A stretch of 64,000 bases of DNA. Source: an uncultured Candidatus Saccharibacteria bacterium (GTDB taxonomy: Bacteria; Patescibacteriota; Minisyncoccia; Phycocordibacterales; SBAW01). The translations under genes were made by a program, and so were the position numbers. The stretch covers positions 79,388-143,387 of the forward strand of contig CAZMIU010000001.1 in NCBI GenBank assembly GCA_964566795.1. Reading direction: 5' to 3'. The notes under the pieces are model-generated. The model was not told the origin of the DNA. It searched no databases and was given only the letters and a program-made list of their open reading frames with translations. Positions 2,297 through 21,028 of this stretch are shown here, one piece after another. Numbering within the stretch: position 1 is the first letter of the stretch; the number at the start of each line of letters is the position of its first letter.

Positions 2297-5200
2297 TTAG
2301 GCGCTGCAGGACTCGCAGGCTTCGCTAAGCACTTCTATCTTGGGGCGGGATTTGACCGCAAGAGGCGCGCCGCCAAGCGTGGGCACACCCGAGGAGCCTC
2401 CCATGCTCGCCTCGGCAGTAAACATGCTGCCCTCGGCGTACGGCGCCTTGCGAGCCTCAGCGATAAGCTCCATCTGGCCGGCGTCCACCTGCGCGGCCTC
2501 AACAGTAGCCACCACCTCGCCCACACTCATAAGCGCCACAGCCTCTGCGGCATTTTGAGCCTGCGTGGCCTGAGCCATGAGTGTGTCCTGGGTCGAGACG
2601 GTTACGGTCTCTTGTATCACGACCGTGCTTGCAATGCCGGAGGCCACCGGGGCGCCCGCGTCGGTGCTTGTGGTGTGCTTGGAGCTATCTATGGTCGACT
2701 TCTCAATGCGCGACGCTCCAAGTGTGCGCAGGTAGTAGGTGGTCTTGAGCCCCAGCCCCCAGGCGTACTGATACAGCTCGCTTAAGACGCGCCCGCTAGT
2801 GCCACCGTAGAAGATGTTTAATGACTGCGACTGGTCTATCCAGCGGCCGCGGTAGGCAGCTGCCTTGATAAGCCACTGCGGCTCCATCTCAAACACCTCC
2901 TTGTACTTCTCGCGTATGCCCGGAGGTATCTCGTGGATGTCCTGGACCGAGCCGTCGTGGAACTTGATGCGCTCAAGCATCTCGCTGCTCCAGAGCCCGA
3001 GCTTTTTGAGGTCCTCAACCAGATACTCGTTGACTATCATAAAGTCGCCGGCCATGTTGGACTTTACGTAGATATTTTTGTAAATAGGCTCCACGGTGGG
3101 GTAGCAGCCCGCGATGTTTGCGGTGGTGGCGGTGGGCGCGTGTGCCTGGGTGTTGGAGTTGCGCATGCCCCACTGGCGCACAGCCTCGCGCACCATCTGC
3201 CAGTTGAGCGTCTCGTGGCGCGGCACATCTATGCGCATACCGCGCTCCTGCTCCAGGAGGGCCAGGGTGTCCTGGGGCAAGATCCCGCGGTCCCACTTGG
3301 AGCCCTTGTAGGTCTCATAGGTGCCGCGCTCTTTGGCCAAAAGCGCCGAAGAGAGTATCGCGTGGTAGGAGATCACCTCCTGAGACTCGTCGCTAAACTT
3401 GACCGCCTCGTCCGTGTCAAAGTTGATACCCATCTTGTACAGGGCATCCATAAGACCGCGCAAACCTAGCCCCACGGGCCTATGGCGCATGTTGGAGTTC
3501 TTGGTCTTCTGCGTAGGGTAGTAGTTAACGTCGATAACGTTGTCGAGCATGCGCATGGCAACAGGTACCACGCGCGCAACCAGGTCGCGGTCAAAGCGGG
3601 CATCCGAGGTTACAAACGCCCCCAGGTTTAAGGAGCCCAGGTTGCATACGGCCGTCTCAGTTTTGGAGGTGTTGAGTGTAATCTCGGTGCACAGGTTGGA
3701 GGAGTGCACGACGCCCACATGGTCCTGCGGGCTGCGGACGTTGCTCGGGTCTTTCCAGGTAATCCAGGGGTGGCCGGTCTCAAAGAGCATGGTAATGTGC
3801 TTGCGCCAAAGATCTGCCGCCTTGACCACTTTGTGGAGCTTAATGTGGCCCTCCTGGGCCAATTTCTCGTAGCGCTCATACGCCTCATCAAAACGCTTGC
3901 CATACAGGTCATGCAGGTCGGGCGTGTCAGACGGGCTAAACAGCGTCCACTGGCCGTCCTCCTGGAGGCGCTTCATAAACAAATCGGGGATCCAGGTTGC
4001 TGTGTTGAGGTCGTGGGTGCGCCGGCGCTCATCACCGGTGTTTTTACGCAGTTCCATAAAGTCCTCAATCTCGAGATGCCAGTACTCCAGGTATACCGCG
4101 GTGGCGCCGCGGCGGCGGCCCGAGCGGTTAATGGAGATGGTGACGTCGTTCTCTATGCGCAGGAAGGGGACCACGCCCTGGCTCTCGACACCGGTCTTAG
4201 ACACCAAAGAGCCCACCGCGCGGATGTAGGACCAGTCGACACCGAGGCCGCCGGCATACTTCAAGAGCTGTGCGCCGTCTTTGTACTCGTCAAATATGGA
4301 GTGCAGGTCGTCCGGCACGGTAGAGAGAAAACACGAGGAGAGCTGGGGCACGGTGGTGCCTGCGTGATAGAGGGTCGGCGAGGAGGGCATGTAGTACATC
4401 GCCGACATGATCTCGTAAAACTCTATAGCCTGGGCCTGGCGTGCCTCAGGCGTCTTCTCGGCCAGAGCGCAGCCCATGGCAACACGCATCCAGAATATCT
4501 GCGGGGTCTCCAGCAGCTTGCGGGTTTTGTGCTCCTTGGAGAGATAGTTGGAGTGCAAAGTTTGTAGCCCGAGGTATTTAAAGTCGTTGTCCCGCTCTAT
4601 AACAAGCGCCTCTGCGAGCTTGGGCAGGTCAAACGAGAGCATCTCTGGGTCAAACCAGCCGATCTCCACGCCTTTGTGCATGCTGCGGACAAACGCAGCC
4701 TTGTGCTCTTCCTCCAGGCGGGTGTAGTCGGCAATCGGGCCTATAACCTCGCGATACATGTGCTGCAGCAGGAGCCGCGAGGCCACATAGGAGTAGGCAG
4801 GGTCGCGCTCAATCATGCTTCGGGTCACCATGATAAGCACGTCGTGGATGTCGTTGGTAGAGATGCCGTCGTACATCTCCTGGCGTACGCGGGCAATAAC
4901 GCCGCGGCTGTCTATGACAGACTCGTACCCCTTGCTTGCATACTTTAAGGAGGAGGCAAGTTTGTCCTCGCTAAAGTTCTCGCGGCTGCCGTCGCGCTTG
5001 GTTATAAGGAGTGCGTTGTCCTCTATCTTTTCTGCAACTTCGGCCTTGGCCTCCTCGCGTGCCTTCGCATGCTCGTAGCGGTAGATAATATAGTCTTTGG
5101 CCACGCCAAAGTACCCACGCTCCATAAGCGCCATCTCTACCAGGTCCTGCACATCCTCCACGGTTGGTATAAACGCCGTGTTGCCAAACTTGGCCTCGAG

Positions 5201-18007: not shown

Positions 18008-18544
18008 TTAGCGCCGGGCGGGGTTGAGTGCCTGATGTTTGGGCAAGGCACAGTAGTTGGAGCCTTGCATCCGCTCGTATCCGCAGCGGCGTCCGTCCTC
18101 GTCGTGTGCGTGGCACTGCGTTGCCTCACTCGCAGCCAACTTGTACTTCTGGGGGTCGTGCAGCTCAGTTGCGGGCTTGAGTGTGCCCACAAGCACGGGC
18201 ATTGTGTATACAACAGGGGGTGGGAGCTCTTCCGCGACGGGCTCGGGTTGGGGCTCGGGTGGCACAGATGGTGGTGCCGCGGCCTTGGGCTTTGCCGGCT
18301 TTGGTGCCTGCTTTTTTTGGGGCGCCGCGCTTTGCTTGGTTTTGTTCTCCTTTGGTTTTTTTGCCTTGCCAGGGCTCCTTGTCGAGGGGATCTTCTTCCT
18401 ATGGCGCAGCCCCGCAATGGCGTTTGGAGTTGTGCCAAGCTCCTCGGCAACGCTCTTGTTGGTGCCGCCTGCGAGCATAAGCTCTCTGACAGCTGCTTCC
18501 TGCTCCTTAGGAGACATGTCGTCGTAGAGTTTCTTTTTTACCAT
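18008..18544 (-). CDS. DNA-binding protein: sigma-70 region-4/LuxR-like HTH, Lys/Pro-rich linker, C-terminal Cys/His cluster
   Basis: SPKEQEAAVRELMLAGGTNKSVAEELG HTH; CHAHDEDGRRCGY..YCALPKH. Confidence 0.5.
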   Translation of the reverse strand: MVKKKLYDDMSPKEQEAAVRELMLAGGTNKSVAEELGTTPNAIAGLRHRKKIPSTRSPGKAKKPKENKTKQSAAPQKKQAPKPAKPKAAAPPSVPPEPQPEPVAEELPPPVVYTMPVLVGTLKPATELHDPQKYKLAASEATQCHAHDEDGRRCGYERMQGSNYCALPKHQALNPARR

Positions 18545-18691: not shown

Positions 18692-19171
18692 ATGAGTATC
18701 TCATCTGTGGGCGATGGGCATATCTTTGTCGAGGTTAAGGATCTTAAGGCGTTTTTTGATAAGGCAAAAAACTCAGACGGCAAGACAATCGGGCGCGGGC
18801 AGTTTGATTTCGTACTCCACATCACGGCGCTCCAGGGCGCAGTGTATATCCCGACCAGCATTGCCTCGGGCAAAAAGCCCACCGGCTTTGTCTACCAGAT
18901 AGAGGGCACCGCACAGGGGAGCATCTCGAGCGCGAGCGTGTCGGCCAAGGGCGAGGGCGTGTCGCAAGTCACGTTAGGCACCCTGGTGTATACCAAGATC
19001 CCGCAGGGCAAGACCGCCGCATGCAAAGCAATCGTGATGATAGAGGGGAGCGTTAACAAGGAGTACGGCGTGGTCATTAACCGCATCAACTACAAGCTCG
19101 ACCCGAGTGACGCCCGGTACAAAAAGTTTGATGTAGACCTCGCCTCCCGCGCCCTTGAGTTTAAGTACTAA
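18692..19171 (+). CDS. hypothetical protein (159 aa, beta-rich)
   Basis: clean ORF followed by strong terminator. Confidence 0.5.
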   Translation: MSISSVGDGHIFVEVKDLKAFFDKAKNSDGKTIGRGQFDFVLHITALQGAVYIPTSIASGKKPTGFVYQIEGTAQGSISSASVSAKGEGVSQVTLGTLVYTKIPQGKTAACKAIVMIEGSVNKEYGVVINRINYKLDPSDARYKKFDVDLASRALEFKY

Positions 19172-19173
19172 AA

Positions 19174-19210
19174 GAAAAGGCCGGAGCATGCTCCGGCCTT
19201 TTCTTTTCTG
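19174..19210. terminator. bidirectional terminator (gene at 18692 and tRNA-Asn)
   Basis: GGCCGGAGC-atg-CTCCGGCC flanked by AAAGAAAA / TTTTCTTTTCT. Confidence 0.7.
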
Positions 19211-19474
19211 CTCCTCGGGTAGGACTCGAACCTACAACCAACTCCTTACACGTATCCTCTAGTTACTTAGAGGCGTGGACTATATCACCATCCGCTTGGG
19301 ATGCTCCGGTATCTAGTCTCTACGGCGCCCCCAACCTCGTGTTGGGGTTCCCTCGGTGTTGCCCTTCTTATAAAAAGAATCGGGGTTCACCGATATCCCG
19401 GAGTTATTCGGTGCGCCTCGCGGCGCAAAGCTGCCAGTCGACAGGGAGCTGCTCTACCATTGAGCTACCGAGGA
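19211..19474 (-). tRNA. tRNA-Asn(GUU) interrupted by a group I intron between anticodon-loop positions 35/36
   Basis: exon1 TCCTCGGTAGCTCAATGGTAGAGCAGCTCCCTGT (19441-19474), exon2 TAAGGAGTTGGTTGTAGGTTCGAGTCCTACCCGAGGAG (19211-19248); splice-out gives canonical cloverleaf, loop CUGUUAA, discriminator G like E. coli tRNA-Asn. Confidence 0.7.
19249..19440 (-). mobile_element. group I self-splicing intron (192 nt, IC3-like, ORF-less)
   Basis: contains GTAGAGACTAGA (R/P7 element, identical to Azoarcus tRNA-Ile intron) and GATATAGTCC (S element); 5' splice site after U with CUGU/GCAG P1 U.G wobble; ends in G. Confidence 0.65.
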
Positions 19475-19498: not shown

Positions 19499-19526
19499 AT
19501 TATACATAATTTTTGAGATTGAACAA
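19499..19526 (-). promoter_or_regulatory. sigma70-like promoter for tRNA-Asn
   Basis: minus strand TTGTTC-16nt-TATAAT about 25 nt upstream of tRNA 5' end. Confidence 0.5.
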
Positions 19527-19546
19527 ACTTAACACCTGGTGTTATA

Positions 19547-19897
19547 TTGCCTTTGATGATAAAAGACTGCCGGTTACATGGGTCTGTAAAACACTTTCCA
19601 CGCCCGGACGGTGCATACCGTTGCGGCAAATGTGCGTCCGCGTGGGTGATAAAAAACAGACAAAAAAAGAAAGAGCGGCTGGTGCAGGAATTTGGCGGTC
19701 AATGCACTGTGTGCGGGTATAAAAAGTATGCAGGCGCACTCGACTTTCATCACACAAATCCAAAAAACAAGTCTTTTGCCCTGAGCGTCAAAGGCCTGTC
19801 GTATTCATGGGAGAGCCTGCTTAAGGAGGCTAAGAAATGTGTGTTGGTCTGCAAAAACTGCCATACAGAGATTGAGGCAGGGTTGCAATCTCTCTAG
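19547..19897 (+). CDS. HNH endonuclease (free-standing)
   Basis: CTVCGYKK..LDFHHTNPKNKSF..CVLVCKNCH HNH/zinc-finger signature. Confidence 0.8.
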   Translation: MPLMIKDCRLHGSVKHFPRPDGAYRCGKCASAWVIKNRQKKKERLVQEFGGQCTVCGYKKYAGALDFHHTNPKNKSFALSVKGLSYSWESLLKEAKKCVLVCKNCHTEIEAGLQSL

Positions 19898-20136
19898 TAG
19901 CGTTTCTGCAGAATTTCGTTAAAGCGGTCGGCTAACACGTCAAAGCCGGGTATGACACCCAATATAGACAAGAGCCAGCCAATGAGCACCACGCCCACGA
20001 TGGTGCCCAAGACAATCCCCACACCATAGAGCATGCCGTTTAAGAGGCTCTTGGTCGGCCGGTGCTCGGTATTTTCTTTAATCTCGTCGAGCAGGTGCTC
20101 TACCTTCTGTGCTTCCTGTTGTACCTGCGGGTCCAT
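19894..20136 (-). CDS. small membrane protein, hypothetical (co-transcribed with SET gene)
   Basis: start codon directly follows SET stop; helical N-term, one TM. Confidence 0.45.
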   Translation of the reverse strand: MDPQVQQEAQKVEHLLDEIKENTEHRPTKSLLNGMLYGVGIVLGTIVGVVLIGWLLSILGVIPGFDVLADRFNEILQKRY

Positions 20137-20583
20137 TTACTTAGTATACAGCCCGGGTGAGTGTTTGATGCAGCGGCAGCCTTTGGGCTTTATGTAGGCC
20201 TCCCAATAGTCTTTGTCATAGTCGTAGCCGATCTCCTCGCCGGCCCTGATCTTACGCTTAGCCATGACAAACACGCGGTGTTTGTAGATATCAATCTCGG
20301 CGTTGGGGCGGCACGAGTGGTTAATGTAGCGGGCGGTGTTCCAGCGCGGGGCGCCGTCTATGGTGACCCCGCCTCCGGCGTCAAAGAGGTAGAGGCTGTT
20401 TGAGTCCTCCTCTTCCTGCTTGCTCAGTATCTTGCCCCGGTACTCGATAATGCAGGCGCCCTTCTTGATGTCCTCCAAGGCAAAGAGCCCTAGCCCCGCC
20501 ACGGAGCGCTTTACCTTTAAATTAAAATTGCCTGGCGTGTATTTTTTGGGCCAGGCAGCCTTCACAACCTTGTTTTTCTTCAT
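20137..20583 (-). CDS. SET-domain protein (putative protein lysine methyltransferase)
   Basis: NHSCRPN, EEIGYDYD, post-SET CRC; AGGAA RBS before ATG 20583. Confidence 0.75.
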   Translation of the reverse strand: MKKNKVVKAAWPKKYTPGNFNLKVKRSVAGLGLFALEDIKKGACIIEYRGKILSKQEEEDSNSLYLFDAGGGVTIDGAPRWNTARYINHSCRPNAEIDIYKHRVFVMAKRKIRAGEEIGYDYDKDYWEAYIKPKGCRCIKHSPGLYTK

Positions 20584-20665
20584 ATTGGATATTCCTTTGT
20601 AGCATACGATAAGGCCGGGGTACAATGGGGACAGCGGGCGATTAGCAGGTAATCTAGCGTACGGG

Positions 20666-21028
20666 ATGAATTACAACATCAAGGGCACCGGTATCGAGGT
20701 TACTGATGAGCTTAGGGGCTACGTGGAGCGCCAGCTGGCGCACGCCGACAAATTTTTATCTCCTGACCCCACAGCCCATGTTGATGTAGAGCTGCAGTAT
20801 TTAGAGGACGGCCGCTCGGGCAAGTATCGCGCCGAGTTTACGGCCTCGGCCTCCGGAGAGGTCTACCGCGCGGAGCGCTGGGGCCAGACCATGCACGAGG
20901 CCATAGACGTGGCCGGGGCCGAGCTTGCCCAGGAGCTTTCCCGGGATAAAAAGAAAAAGCAGTCGGTATTGCGCCGCACCTCGGTGAGGGTGAAGGAATA
21001 CCTGCGCGGTTGGCGAAGCGACATCTAA
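20666..21028 (+). CDS. hpf: ribosome hibernation promoting factor / RaiA (short form)
   Basis: MNYNIKGTGIEVTDELRGYVERQL.. matches HPF/YfiA family. Confidence 0.8.
   Translation: MNYNIKGTGIEVTDELRGYVERQLAHADKFLSPDPTAHVDVELQYLEDGRSGKYRAEFTASASGEVYRAERWGQTMHEAIDVAGAELAQELSRDKKKKQSVLRRTSVRVKEYLRGWRSDI

Follow-up and report, generated by a model that had tools for sequence, protein, structure and literature searches.

A free-standing HNH endonuclease gene, probably of homing type, beside the intron-containing tRNA-Asn gene of Patescibacteria

What is a small HNH endonuclease gene doing directly beside a tRNA gene that is split by a group I intron without an open reading frame (ORF)? The question is raised by a 64,000-nucleotide stretch from an uncultured Candidatus Saccharibacteria bacterium (assembly GCA_964566795.1, contig CAZMIU010000001.1, positions 79,388 to 143,387 of the forward strand), here called the window, in which the HNH gene is transcribed divergently from an intron-containing tRNA-Asn gene. 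Free-standing homing endonucleases have been described before within tRNA clusters, and so has collaborative, or trans, homing (PMC2330249, PMC2790892, PMC6083498, PMC3984707). An ORF-less intron directly beside a free-standing endonuclease gene is the layout of collaborative homing, and a first-pass annotation of the locus had read it in that way. Our analysis, based on metagenome-assembled genomes and metagenome contigs, favours on balance a free-standing homing-type HNH endonuclease from a lineage specialised on the tRNA-Asn gene, and both the location of the gene and its presence/absence pattern are those of a homing endonuclease gene. Mobilisation of the intron by cutting of the intronless site is not clearly favoured. 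The central features, in window positions, are the following:

19556 to 19897, plus strand: HNH endonuclease gene, most likely 113 aa from ATG 19556 (the alternative start TTG 19547 gives 116 aa)
19441 to 19474, minus strand: 5' exon of tRNA-Asn(GUU), 34 nt, ending in CTGT, with U35 last
19249 to 19440, minus strand: ORF-less group I intron, 192 nt, between anticodon positions U35 and U36
19211 to 19248, minus strand: 3' exon of tRNA-Asn, 38 nt, starting with TAAGGAG

The ORF list of the window gives a plus-strand frame from TTG 19547 to 19897, and a 116-aa HNH protein had been described from it. The motifs of that description hold, namely CxxC (C50, C53), DFHH (H65, H66) and CKNCH (C99, N101, C102, H103). 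The length does not: the 158 homologs with 64–85% identity, whose hosts are Patescibacteria (Paceibacterota, Nomura-, Adler-, Kaiser- and Yanofskybacteria), are mostly 113 aa long, and one of them (P0001) is identical to the window product. The true start is most likely ATG 19556 rather than TTG 19547, and the mRNA is probably leaderless, because in relatives the ATG follows 6–7 nt after a conserved extended -10 element; no Shine-Dalgarno sequence is present ahead of the HNH start. The protein combines an N-terminal Zn ribbon (C5, H8, C23, C26) with an HNH core (C50, C53, H65, H66, C99, N101, C102, H103, E107). Across the homolog alignment the Zn-ribbon ligands are invariant, as are H65, H66, N101, H103, C50, C53, C99 and C102.

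Profile searches matched phrog_2255 ('HNH endonuclease', E = 3.4e-24) and phrog_3106 (E = 1e-21) among the PHROG profiles, while Pfam HNH (PF01844) was marginal at 21.2 bits against a cut-off of 21.4, and PF21368 was weak. An AF2 model had a pLDDT of 92.9. Its top Foldseek matches in the PDB (Cap5 HNH, Gme HNH 4h9d, T4 Endo VII and Cas9 HNH) were weak, the best at E = 0.048 (probability 0.94) and none at E ≤ 0.001; a sequence search of the PDB returned no relative, and the NCBIfam search returned noise only. Motifs, profiles and fold are those of a predicted HNH (His-Me finger) endonuclease. The wider HNH family is very large: a profile search at E ≤ 1e-3 gave 26,282 representative proteins. 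We also observed that the third HNH motif position is E107 (NCHTEIE) throughout the Zn-ribbon clade of the candidate phyla radiation (CPR) and in some intron-encoded copies, and that the last metal-ligand position is His (NCHREIH) in phage relatives and most intron-encoded relatives.

The position of such genes relative to tRNA-Asn was surveyed in one genome per species, giving 80 loci (numbered with the prefix L below), which were sorted by ARAGORN with the intron option together with reading of the exon junctions. Fifty loci carried a Zn-ribbon HNH of the window type and 20 an HNH without Zn ribbon:

Zn-ribbon HNH, divergent from a tRNA-Asn with intron (the window layout): 34 loci
Zn-ribbon HNH, in tandem, its end 6–90 nt before a tRNA-Asn with intron: 6 loci
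Zn-ribbon HNH, divergent from an intronless tRNA-Asn: 3 loci
Zn-ribbon HNH, in tandem with an intronless tRNA-Asn: 3 loci
Zn-ribbon HNH, locus cut by a contig end (3) or without tRNA (L037): 4 loci
HNH without Zn ribbon, ORF inside a 525–604-nt tRNA-Asn intron: 16 loci
HNH without Zn ribbon, free-standing just upstream of the tRNA: 4 loci

Across these CPR genomes of Paceibacteria type, the Zn-ribbon HNH is thus found 5' of tRNA-Asn in 46 of 47 evaluable loci, and the tRNA carries the intron in 40 of 46. The first-pass annotation had held that its reading would fall if the HNH gene were widespread in relatives that lack the intron; with intronless tRNA-Asn at only six of the 46 Zn-ribbon loci, the reading is not refuted in this way. 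In four of the five intronless tRNA-Asn genes beside an intact HNH (L007, L008, L014, L024) the anticodon stem has a G31:C39 pair (CTCG-CTGTTAA-CGAG), and most intron-containing tRNA-Asn genes have C31:G39 (CTCC...GGAG). The G31:C39 stem may be a resistant target variant, a suggestion resting on about two independent events. That leaves ten loci, all from more distant relatives in other phyla, found by other tRNA genes or in tRNA arrays. In Pyrinomonadaceae (Acidobacteriota; L072, L074–L079), HNH genes with 41–52% identity lie between tRNA-Gly(GCC) and tRNA-Cys(GCA), the HNH stop being 0–1 nt from the 5' end of tRNA-Cys or overlapping it, and no intron is present.

The HNH genes without Zn ribbon tie the family to the intron itself. 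Their hosts are Woese-, Doudna-, Berkel- and Komeilibacteria and others, and their products share 47–60% identity with the window HNH over residues 31–113. At all 16 intron-encoded loci (e.g. L052, L056) the intron occupies the same U35/U36 site as in the window. The ORF fills the P1 loop ahead of the P3–P9 core, because the catalytic core starts right after the ORF stop and the internal guide sequence GCAGC lies inside the 3' end of the ORF. The P7, P8 and P9 blocks are common to the ORF-less window intron and the ORF-containing intron of L052, and by sequence reading the P9 helices of ORF-less and ORF-containing introns differ by compensatory changes. In a neighbour-joining tree built without bootstrap or other support values and unrooted by function, the two CPR types of HNH form sister clades, the free-standing genes of L059, L066, L070 and L050 nest among the intron-encoded ones, and the three intronless divergent loci make up one clade. 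The free-standing state may be the ancestral one, as the Zn-ribbon architecture common to the window type and the phage relatives hints.

Intron-encoded HNH ORFs of 104–120 aa were seen in L051–L057, L060–L065, L067 and L069, and in the metagenome loci L085, L096, L108 and others. A motif TGGTATACT-N9-ATG stands ahead of the intron-encoded ORF; this motif could be an internal promoter, or a hairpin (GGUAUACU/AGUAUGCC) covering the start codon. In the free-standing genes without Zn ribbon of L059, L066 and L070, the TGA of the HNH is fused to TATAAT, and the stop codon is therefore part of the extended -10 element of the downstream tRNA-Asn promoter.

Pairs of closely related loci showed that the gene comes and goes. 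L003, with HNH, and L158, without it, represent a within-species polymorphism: they share 97.7% identity over tRNA and intron and 96.3% in the distal flank. Where L003 has a 424-nt cassette (3918–4341; tRNA leader and promoter, palindrome, and HNH as far as the stop codon), an unrelated segment of 72 nt (3977–4048) with a different tRNA promoter stands in L158; homology ends 3 nt past the tRNA 5' end and restarts at the HNH stop. The same pattern was found between L010 and L086, the latter keeping about 12 nt of the HNH 3' end. Because L003 and L158 both contain the intron, gain or loss of the HNH is decoupled from that of the intron. HNH remnants occur in L112, L135, L174 and L102, and shortened copies in L023, L045–L047, L060 and L067. 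The L003/L158 cassette qualifies the compact insertion proposed by the first-pass annotation: it is more than an inserted ORF, since the tRNA promoter is included. In the closest HNH-less syntenic relative of the window, L155, the region is inverted with different content and does not represent a simple insertion; the cassette edges could not be drawn from that comparison.

Other loci bear rearranged pieces. L112 (11229–13160) has two inverted intron-containing tRNA-Asn copies about 1.2 kb apart, one of them flanked by an N-terminal HNH fragment with an in-frame stop and by the palindrome. Directly upstream of palindrome and HNH, L047 (~1260–1300) and L049 (~3950–3985) have fragments that resemble the 5' half of tRNA-Asn; the one in L047 ends in CTGT followed by the intron-like TTTGCAG. 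In L032 (~4360–4455) a second copy of the tRNA 5' start lies downstream of the HNH. The fragments of L047, L049 and L032 may be recombination scars of moves between the intron-encoded and free-standing states.

In order to view the association from the side of the intron, metagenomes were scanned with a pattern joining the last bases of the intron to the 3' exon, which returned at least 120 stretches; the sample is one exon-sequence type and the first 120 matches, and absence of HNH means no tblastn hit at E ≤ 1e-4 within the available flank. All 20 long introns among the matches listed had the HNH inside. Among the matches listed, 64 ORF-less introns had at least 520 nt of 5' flank, and 14 of these adjoined an HNH (12 divergent genes, of which two were remnants, and 2 tandem ones). 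HNH-positive and HNH-negative introns were interspersed by sequence similarity. On the co-occurrence that the first-pass annotation had proposed to look for by synteny, the two samples differ: the intron is present in 87% of loci given the HNH (40/46), but the HNH in 22% given the ORF-less intron (14/64 among the matches listed).

Between the two genes of the window, three further elements were recognised:

19499 to 19526, minus strand: tRNA-Asn promoter, with -35-like TTGTTC (19526–19521), 16-nt spacer and -10 TATAAT (19504–19499)
19529 to 19545, no strand: palindrome TTAACAC-CTG-GTGTTAT (consensus TAACAC-N3-GTGTTA), overlapping the HNH -10
19540 to 19548, plus strand: extended -10 of the HNH gene, TG-T-TATATT, with the ATG 7 nt later

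The first-pass annotation had called the tRNA promoter a consensus one. This is right for the -10, a perfect TATAAT whose block ATTATAC is conserved in the intergenic alignment of relatives, but not for the -35, which matches TTGACA at 3 of 6 positions and of which TTG alone is conserved. On the HNH side a promoter scan gave TTGAAC-18-TATATT with TG. The extended -10 is conserved as GTGTTATAMT, GTGTTATA(A/C)T (TGnTATAAT-like), and the ATG follows after 6–7 nt in 33 of 41 loci.

The palindrome adjoins the -35 of the tRNA promoter. Across about 40 aligned loci its arms are near-invariant and its spacer is free, and in L001–L049 it lies ~12–30 nt upstream of the HNH ATG. The 64-kb window has a single copy, as has each locus with an exact match. 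The palindrome is confined to Zn-ribbon HNH loci of both orientations, apart from one extra copy in L112. No copy was found in the 48 HNH-less loci among the matches listed (about 290 kb), nor near phage homologs or intron-encoded and other relatives without Zn ribbon. A genome-wide regulator motif was rejected on the single window copy and the absence from HNH-less loci. The palindrome may plausibly be an autorepressor operator bound by the nuclease. The arm GTGTTA and the intron insertion site CTGT|TAA have TGTTA in common; with a post-hoc chance of roughly 0.02–0.05, this 5-nt likeness may serve only as a lead. The homing endonuclease I-TevI is reported by Edgell and colleagues (2004) to repress its own synthesis at an operator that overlaps its promoter and resembles its homing site. 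I-TevI is a GIY-YIG enzyme, and for the window HNH any parallel in autorepression would be purely inferential.

Relatives in phages also keep to tRNA genes. We found 469 phage records with HNH homologs at 40–46% identity, Zn ribbon included. tRNA genes were present in 10 of 11 inspected phage loci, most of which lie inside tRNA arrays, and tRNA-Asn(GTT) is the immediate neighbour of the HNH in CR3, Kaldavass, XbC2, LAh_6 and Lak-C1; in DAC15 a tRNA-Asn-like sequence was seen by eye directly upstream. In IMG/VR, tRNAs lie within 3 kb at 69 of 80 viral loci, tRNA-Asn stands beside four of the five closest relatives, and more distant viral lineages adjoin tRNA-Arg(TCT), tRNA-Ile(TAT) or tRNA-Met. 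Of the indirect evidence for recognition of the tRNA-Asn gene region by the enzyme, this recurrence of tRNA-Asn as a neighbour is the best. Several of these tRNA genes are missing from or misnamed in the records: LAh_6 (L206, Aeromonas phage) has 10 unannotated tRNAs, including a tRNA-Asn 22 nt upstream of the HNH homolog; the Kaldavass record (L205, Erwinia phage) lacks its tRNA-Asn; the tRNA-Asn-like sequence of DAC15 (L203, Bacteroides phage) is unannotated; and Aci05 (L207, Acinetobacter phage) lists a 'tRNA-Val-GTT'.

A homing cycle at this locus might run as follows. The HNH gene would be expressed from the extended -10 promoter as a leaderless mRNA, and expression would probably be kept low by a protein, perhaps the nuclease itself by means of its Zn ribbon, sitting on the palindrome that covers the -10. 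The enzyme would recognise DNA in or near the tRNA-Asn gene of genomes without the HNH and nick or cut there. Recombinational repair templated by an HNH-bearing copy would then transfer tRNA promoter, operator and HNH as one cassette, at times along with the intron next to it. The host gene may be protected by its intron, which splits CTGT|TAA in the anticodon loop, or by variants of the anticodon stem.

A number of observations weigh against a homing-type enzyme. Its presumed target site is read from the gene neighbourhood only. Viral contigs with close relatives were considered as transfer vectors, but IMG/VR yielded no relative above 49% identity. The phage homologs stand beside intronless tRNA-Asn genes, which shows that the enzyme can coexist with such a gene. 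An HNH is absent from the vicinity of 48 of the 64 ORF-less introns among the matches listed, and in the L003/L158 pair, where both members have the intron, the polymorphism is one of the HNH only. Selection on the gene, strong and purifying with pN about 0.1–0.25 (definitions follow), is of the same tenor. In 25 gapless coding sequences the median proportion of synonymous differences (pS) was 0.89, i.e. saturated, against 0.20 for nonsynonymous differences (pN); the intronless clade (L007, L008, L014) has intact HNH genes with pS about 0.7 and pN 0.06–0.10; and HNH identity roughly follows Fmt identity and host divergence. If a homing endonuclease gene were purely selfish and passed on vertically, decay would be the expectation. 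Close pairs gave pS 0.35 with pN 0.013 and pS 0.38 with pN 0.032, and HNH identity was 63–83% where the neighbouring Fmt had 32–66% and HPF 31–53%. Recent horizontal transfer was rejected as the cause of this conservation, synonymous sites being saturated. Long purifying selection is compatible with a homing endonuclease whose function recurrent homing maintains, and also with a domesticated gene.

Domestication would mean that a homing-endonuclease descendant was kept for a host function, either as a regulator binding the palindrome next to the tRNA-Asn promoter or as a nuclease against foreign DNA that bears intronless tRNA-Asn genes, with self-immunity through the intron. The strength and length of the selection speak for it, as do its persistence in the clade that lost the intron, the higher conservation of HNH than of Fmt and HPF, the invariant palindrome strictly co-inherited with the gene, the lack of close copies in viral contigs and the frequency of tRNA-Asn in phage tRNA arrays. 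However, the gene is patchy (14/64 ORF-less-intron loci among the matches listed) and polymorphic within ~97%-identical backgrounds; pseudogenes and remnants exist, and losses this frequent would not be expected of a host-essential gene; and its neighbours are housekeeping genes, with no phenotype or defence-island context seen. We regard domestication as rather unlikely. Still less probable in our estimate is a long-maintained, self-regulated tRNA-Asn nuclease working as a restriction/immunity module on DNA that enters the cell, for instance on phage tRNA arrays with intronless tRNA-Asn, in which the host intron would confer self-immunity and the palindrome would be an autorepressor operator mimicking the target. 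A trans-acting splicing cofactor for the ORF-less intron would account for an HNH adjoining the intron in 40 of 46 evaluable loci and for an intron-encoded sister clade, and maturase activity is known for some intron-encoded LAGLIDADG proteins (PMC3984707). Against this, 75% of the homologous ORF-less introns among the matches listed have no HNH in the available flank, near-identical introns occur with and without it (98% identity, L003/L158), and the HNH is intact where the intron is absent. An obligatory maturase role is ruled out because the intron does not need the HNH; maturase action was thus rejected as a general explanation, and we consider any such role very unlikely. We know of no HNH maturase. 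As for an unrelated small HNH or McrA-like restriction nuclease, placed beside the tRNA by chance or at an insertion hotspot, the 'McrA' label that some sources give to homologs, the marginal Pfam score and the sheer size of the family would allow it, but adjacency to tRNA-Asn in about 70 genome loci, at least 34 metagenome loci and several unrelated phages, the sister clade inside the intron, and a window whose gene content has no integrase or island context make it hardly credible.

The homing-type enzyme with a tRNA-Asn preference remains our favoured reading, and the collaborative homing suggested by the first-pass annotation stands in part. For it speak the evolutionary tie of the HNH to intron and tRNA, with a sister clade inside the same intron at the same site, the presence/absence polymorphism and the remnants; the ORF-less introns without HNH, the two intron-bearing members of the L003/L158 pair and the HNH genes beside intronless tRNA-Asn speak against it.

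The surroundings of the locus add two features and a few neighbouring genes:

19170 to 19208, no strand: bidirectional intrinsic terminator by sequence reading, with A-run, GGCCGGAGC-AT-GCTCCGGCC and T-run
19894 to 20136, minus strand: DUF5665-like 80-aa ORF, convergent with the HNH gene, last gene of the SET-domain operon

On this reading the terminator hairpin ends both the tRNA transcription unit and the upstream plus-strand gene, and spurious Rfam matches to terminator-containing sRNAs fall on it. The HNH gene overlaps the DUF5665-like ORF by 4 nt (19894–19897), which is the overlap with the SET-domain operon reported by the first-pass annotation; its distance of 73 nt from the tRNA 5' end (19474) to TTG 19547 was also correct, and to ATG 19556 the distance is 82 nt. 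Further neighbours are a GcrA-like protein with a CCCH motif (18008–18544, minus strand; weak Pfam match), a bacterial SET-domain protein (20137–20625, minus strand; E = 9e-23) and a ribosome hibernation factor (20666–21028, plus strand). Across relatives, HPF and Fmt show partial synteny with the tRNA-Asn/HNH locus. Neither the tRNA nor the intron of the window was found by ARAGORN with default settings or by Rfam at its gathering threshold, and ARAGORN with the intron option plus an Rfam E-value scan were needed to recover them. In a local search the intron matched Intron_gpI (RF00028) with 41.2 bits (E = 3.4e-9; gathering score 50), and homologous introns in relatives score 51–85 bits to Rfam group I. 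With introns enabled, ARAGORN labels the window gene 'tRNA-Thr(tgt)' and misplaces the intron; it often mislabels these genes as Thr, His or Asp, which we corrected from the exon junctions.

Several known systems resemble the locus. In cyanophage S-PM2, F-CphI is likewise a free-standing endonuclease gene by a gene with an ORF-less group I intron, that of psbA (Zeng, Bonocora and Shub 2009; PMC6083498), and there as here the intron could interrupt and protect the target site. F-CphI has an Endo VII-type motif, a phage host and a protein-coding neighbour, whereas the window has a Zn-ribbon HNH on a bacterial chromosome next to a tRNA; cleavage of the intronless site has been demonstrated for F-CphI, whereas the window enzyme is a predicted nuclease. 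A sister lineage encoded in the same intron is available for the window HNH and not for F-CphI. I-Ssp6803I, from the tRNA-fMet intron of Synechocystis (Bonocora and Shub 2001; PMC3984707), shares the setting of a bacterial tRNA group I intron in the anticodon loop. It is an intron-encoded PD-(D/E)XK enzyme that targets the region around the tRNA-fMet anticodon, in contrast to a free-standing HNH at tRNA-Asn; the intron-encoded CPR relatives L051–L069 are its closer analogue.

Among free-standing genes within tRNA clusters, T4 SegB (GIY-YIG) and F-TflI, -II and -IV of T5 (HNH) have ORF ends that abut tRNAs (PMC2330249; Akulenko 2004), a layout that matches our tandem-class loci and the phage homologs CR3 gp262, DAC15 gp120 and Henu11 gp64. 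SegB belongs to a different nuclease family, and the SegB and F-Tfl systems have no intron. The T5 heg genes were rejected as close relatives, the best match having E = 0.017. In T4, the free-standing HNH enzyme MobE mobilises the neighbouring I-TevIII intron, which is without functional endonuclease (PMC2790892). In the model of Bonocora and Shub, mobile introns arise by invasion of free-standing homing endonuclease genes; it predicts related endonucleases inside and outside the same intron, as is seen at the tRNA-Asn of CPR bacteria. That tRNAs of CPR bacteria carry group I introns is mentioned in passing in PMC8172020, and our search of the literature, which returned only that mention, gave nothing on HNH genes at tRNA-Asn. 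Different from the known systems are the nuclease family and architecture, the cellular tRNA-Asn as host gene, the occurrence of all states at one locus, and the putative operator.

Most documented cases of free-standing endonucleases cooperating with ORF-less introns come from phages, and the leading model of how mobile introns originate is built on such enzymes. Here a chromosomal tRNA locus of bacteria presents one endonuclease family and one intron in every state that the model predicts: the ORF in the intron, upstream in tandem, upstream and divergent, or beside an intronless tRNA, the intron alone, and the ORF decayed. The small size of the pieces (113 aa and 192 nt) makes the model directly testable in vitro. 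The split by the intron also accounts for the absence of tRNA-Asn from the annotations of such genomes. Collectively, our results show a large Zn-ribbon HNH family of phages and CPR bacteria to be linked to tRNA genes; the tRNA-Asn locus of CPR bacteria would be a natural series of an endonuclease gene moving between intron-encoded and free-standing states.

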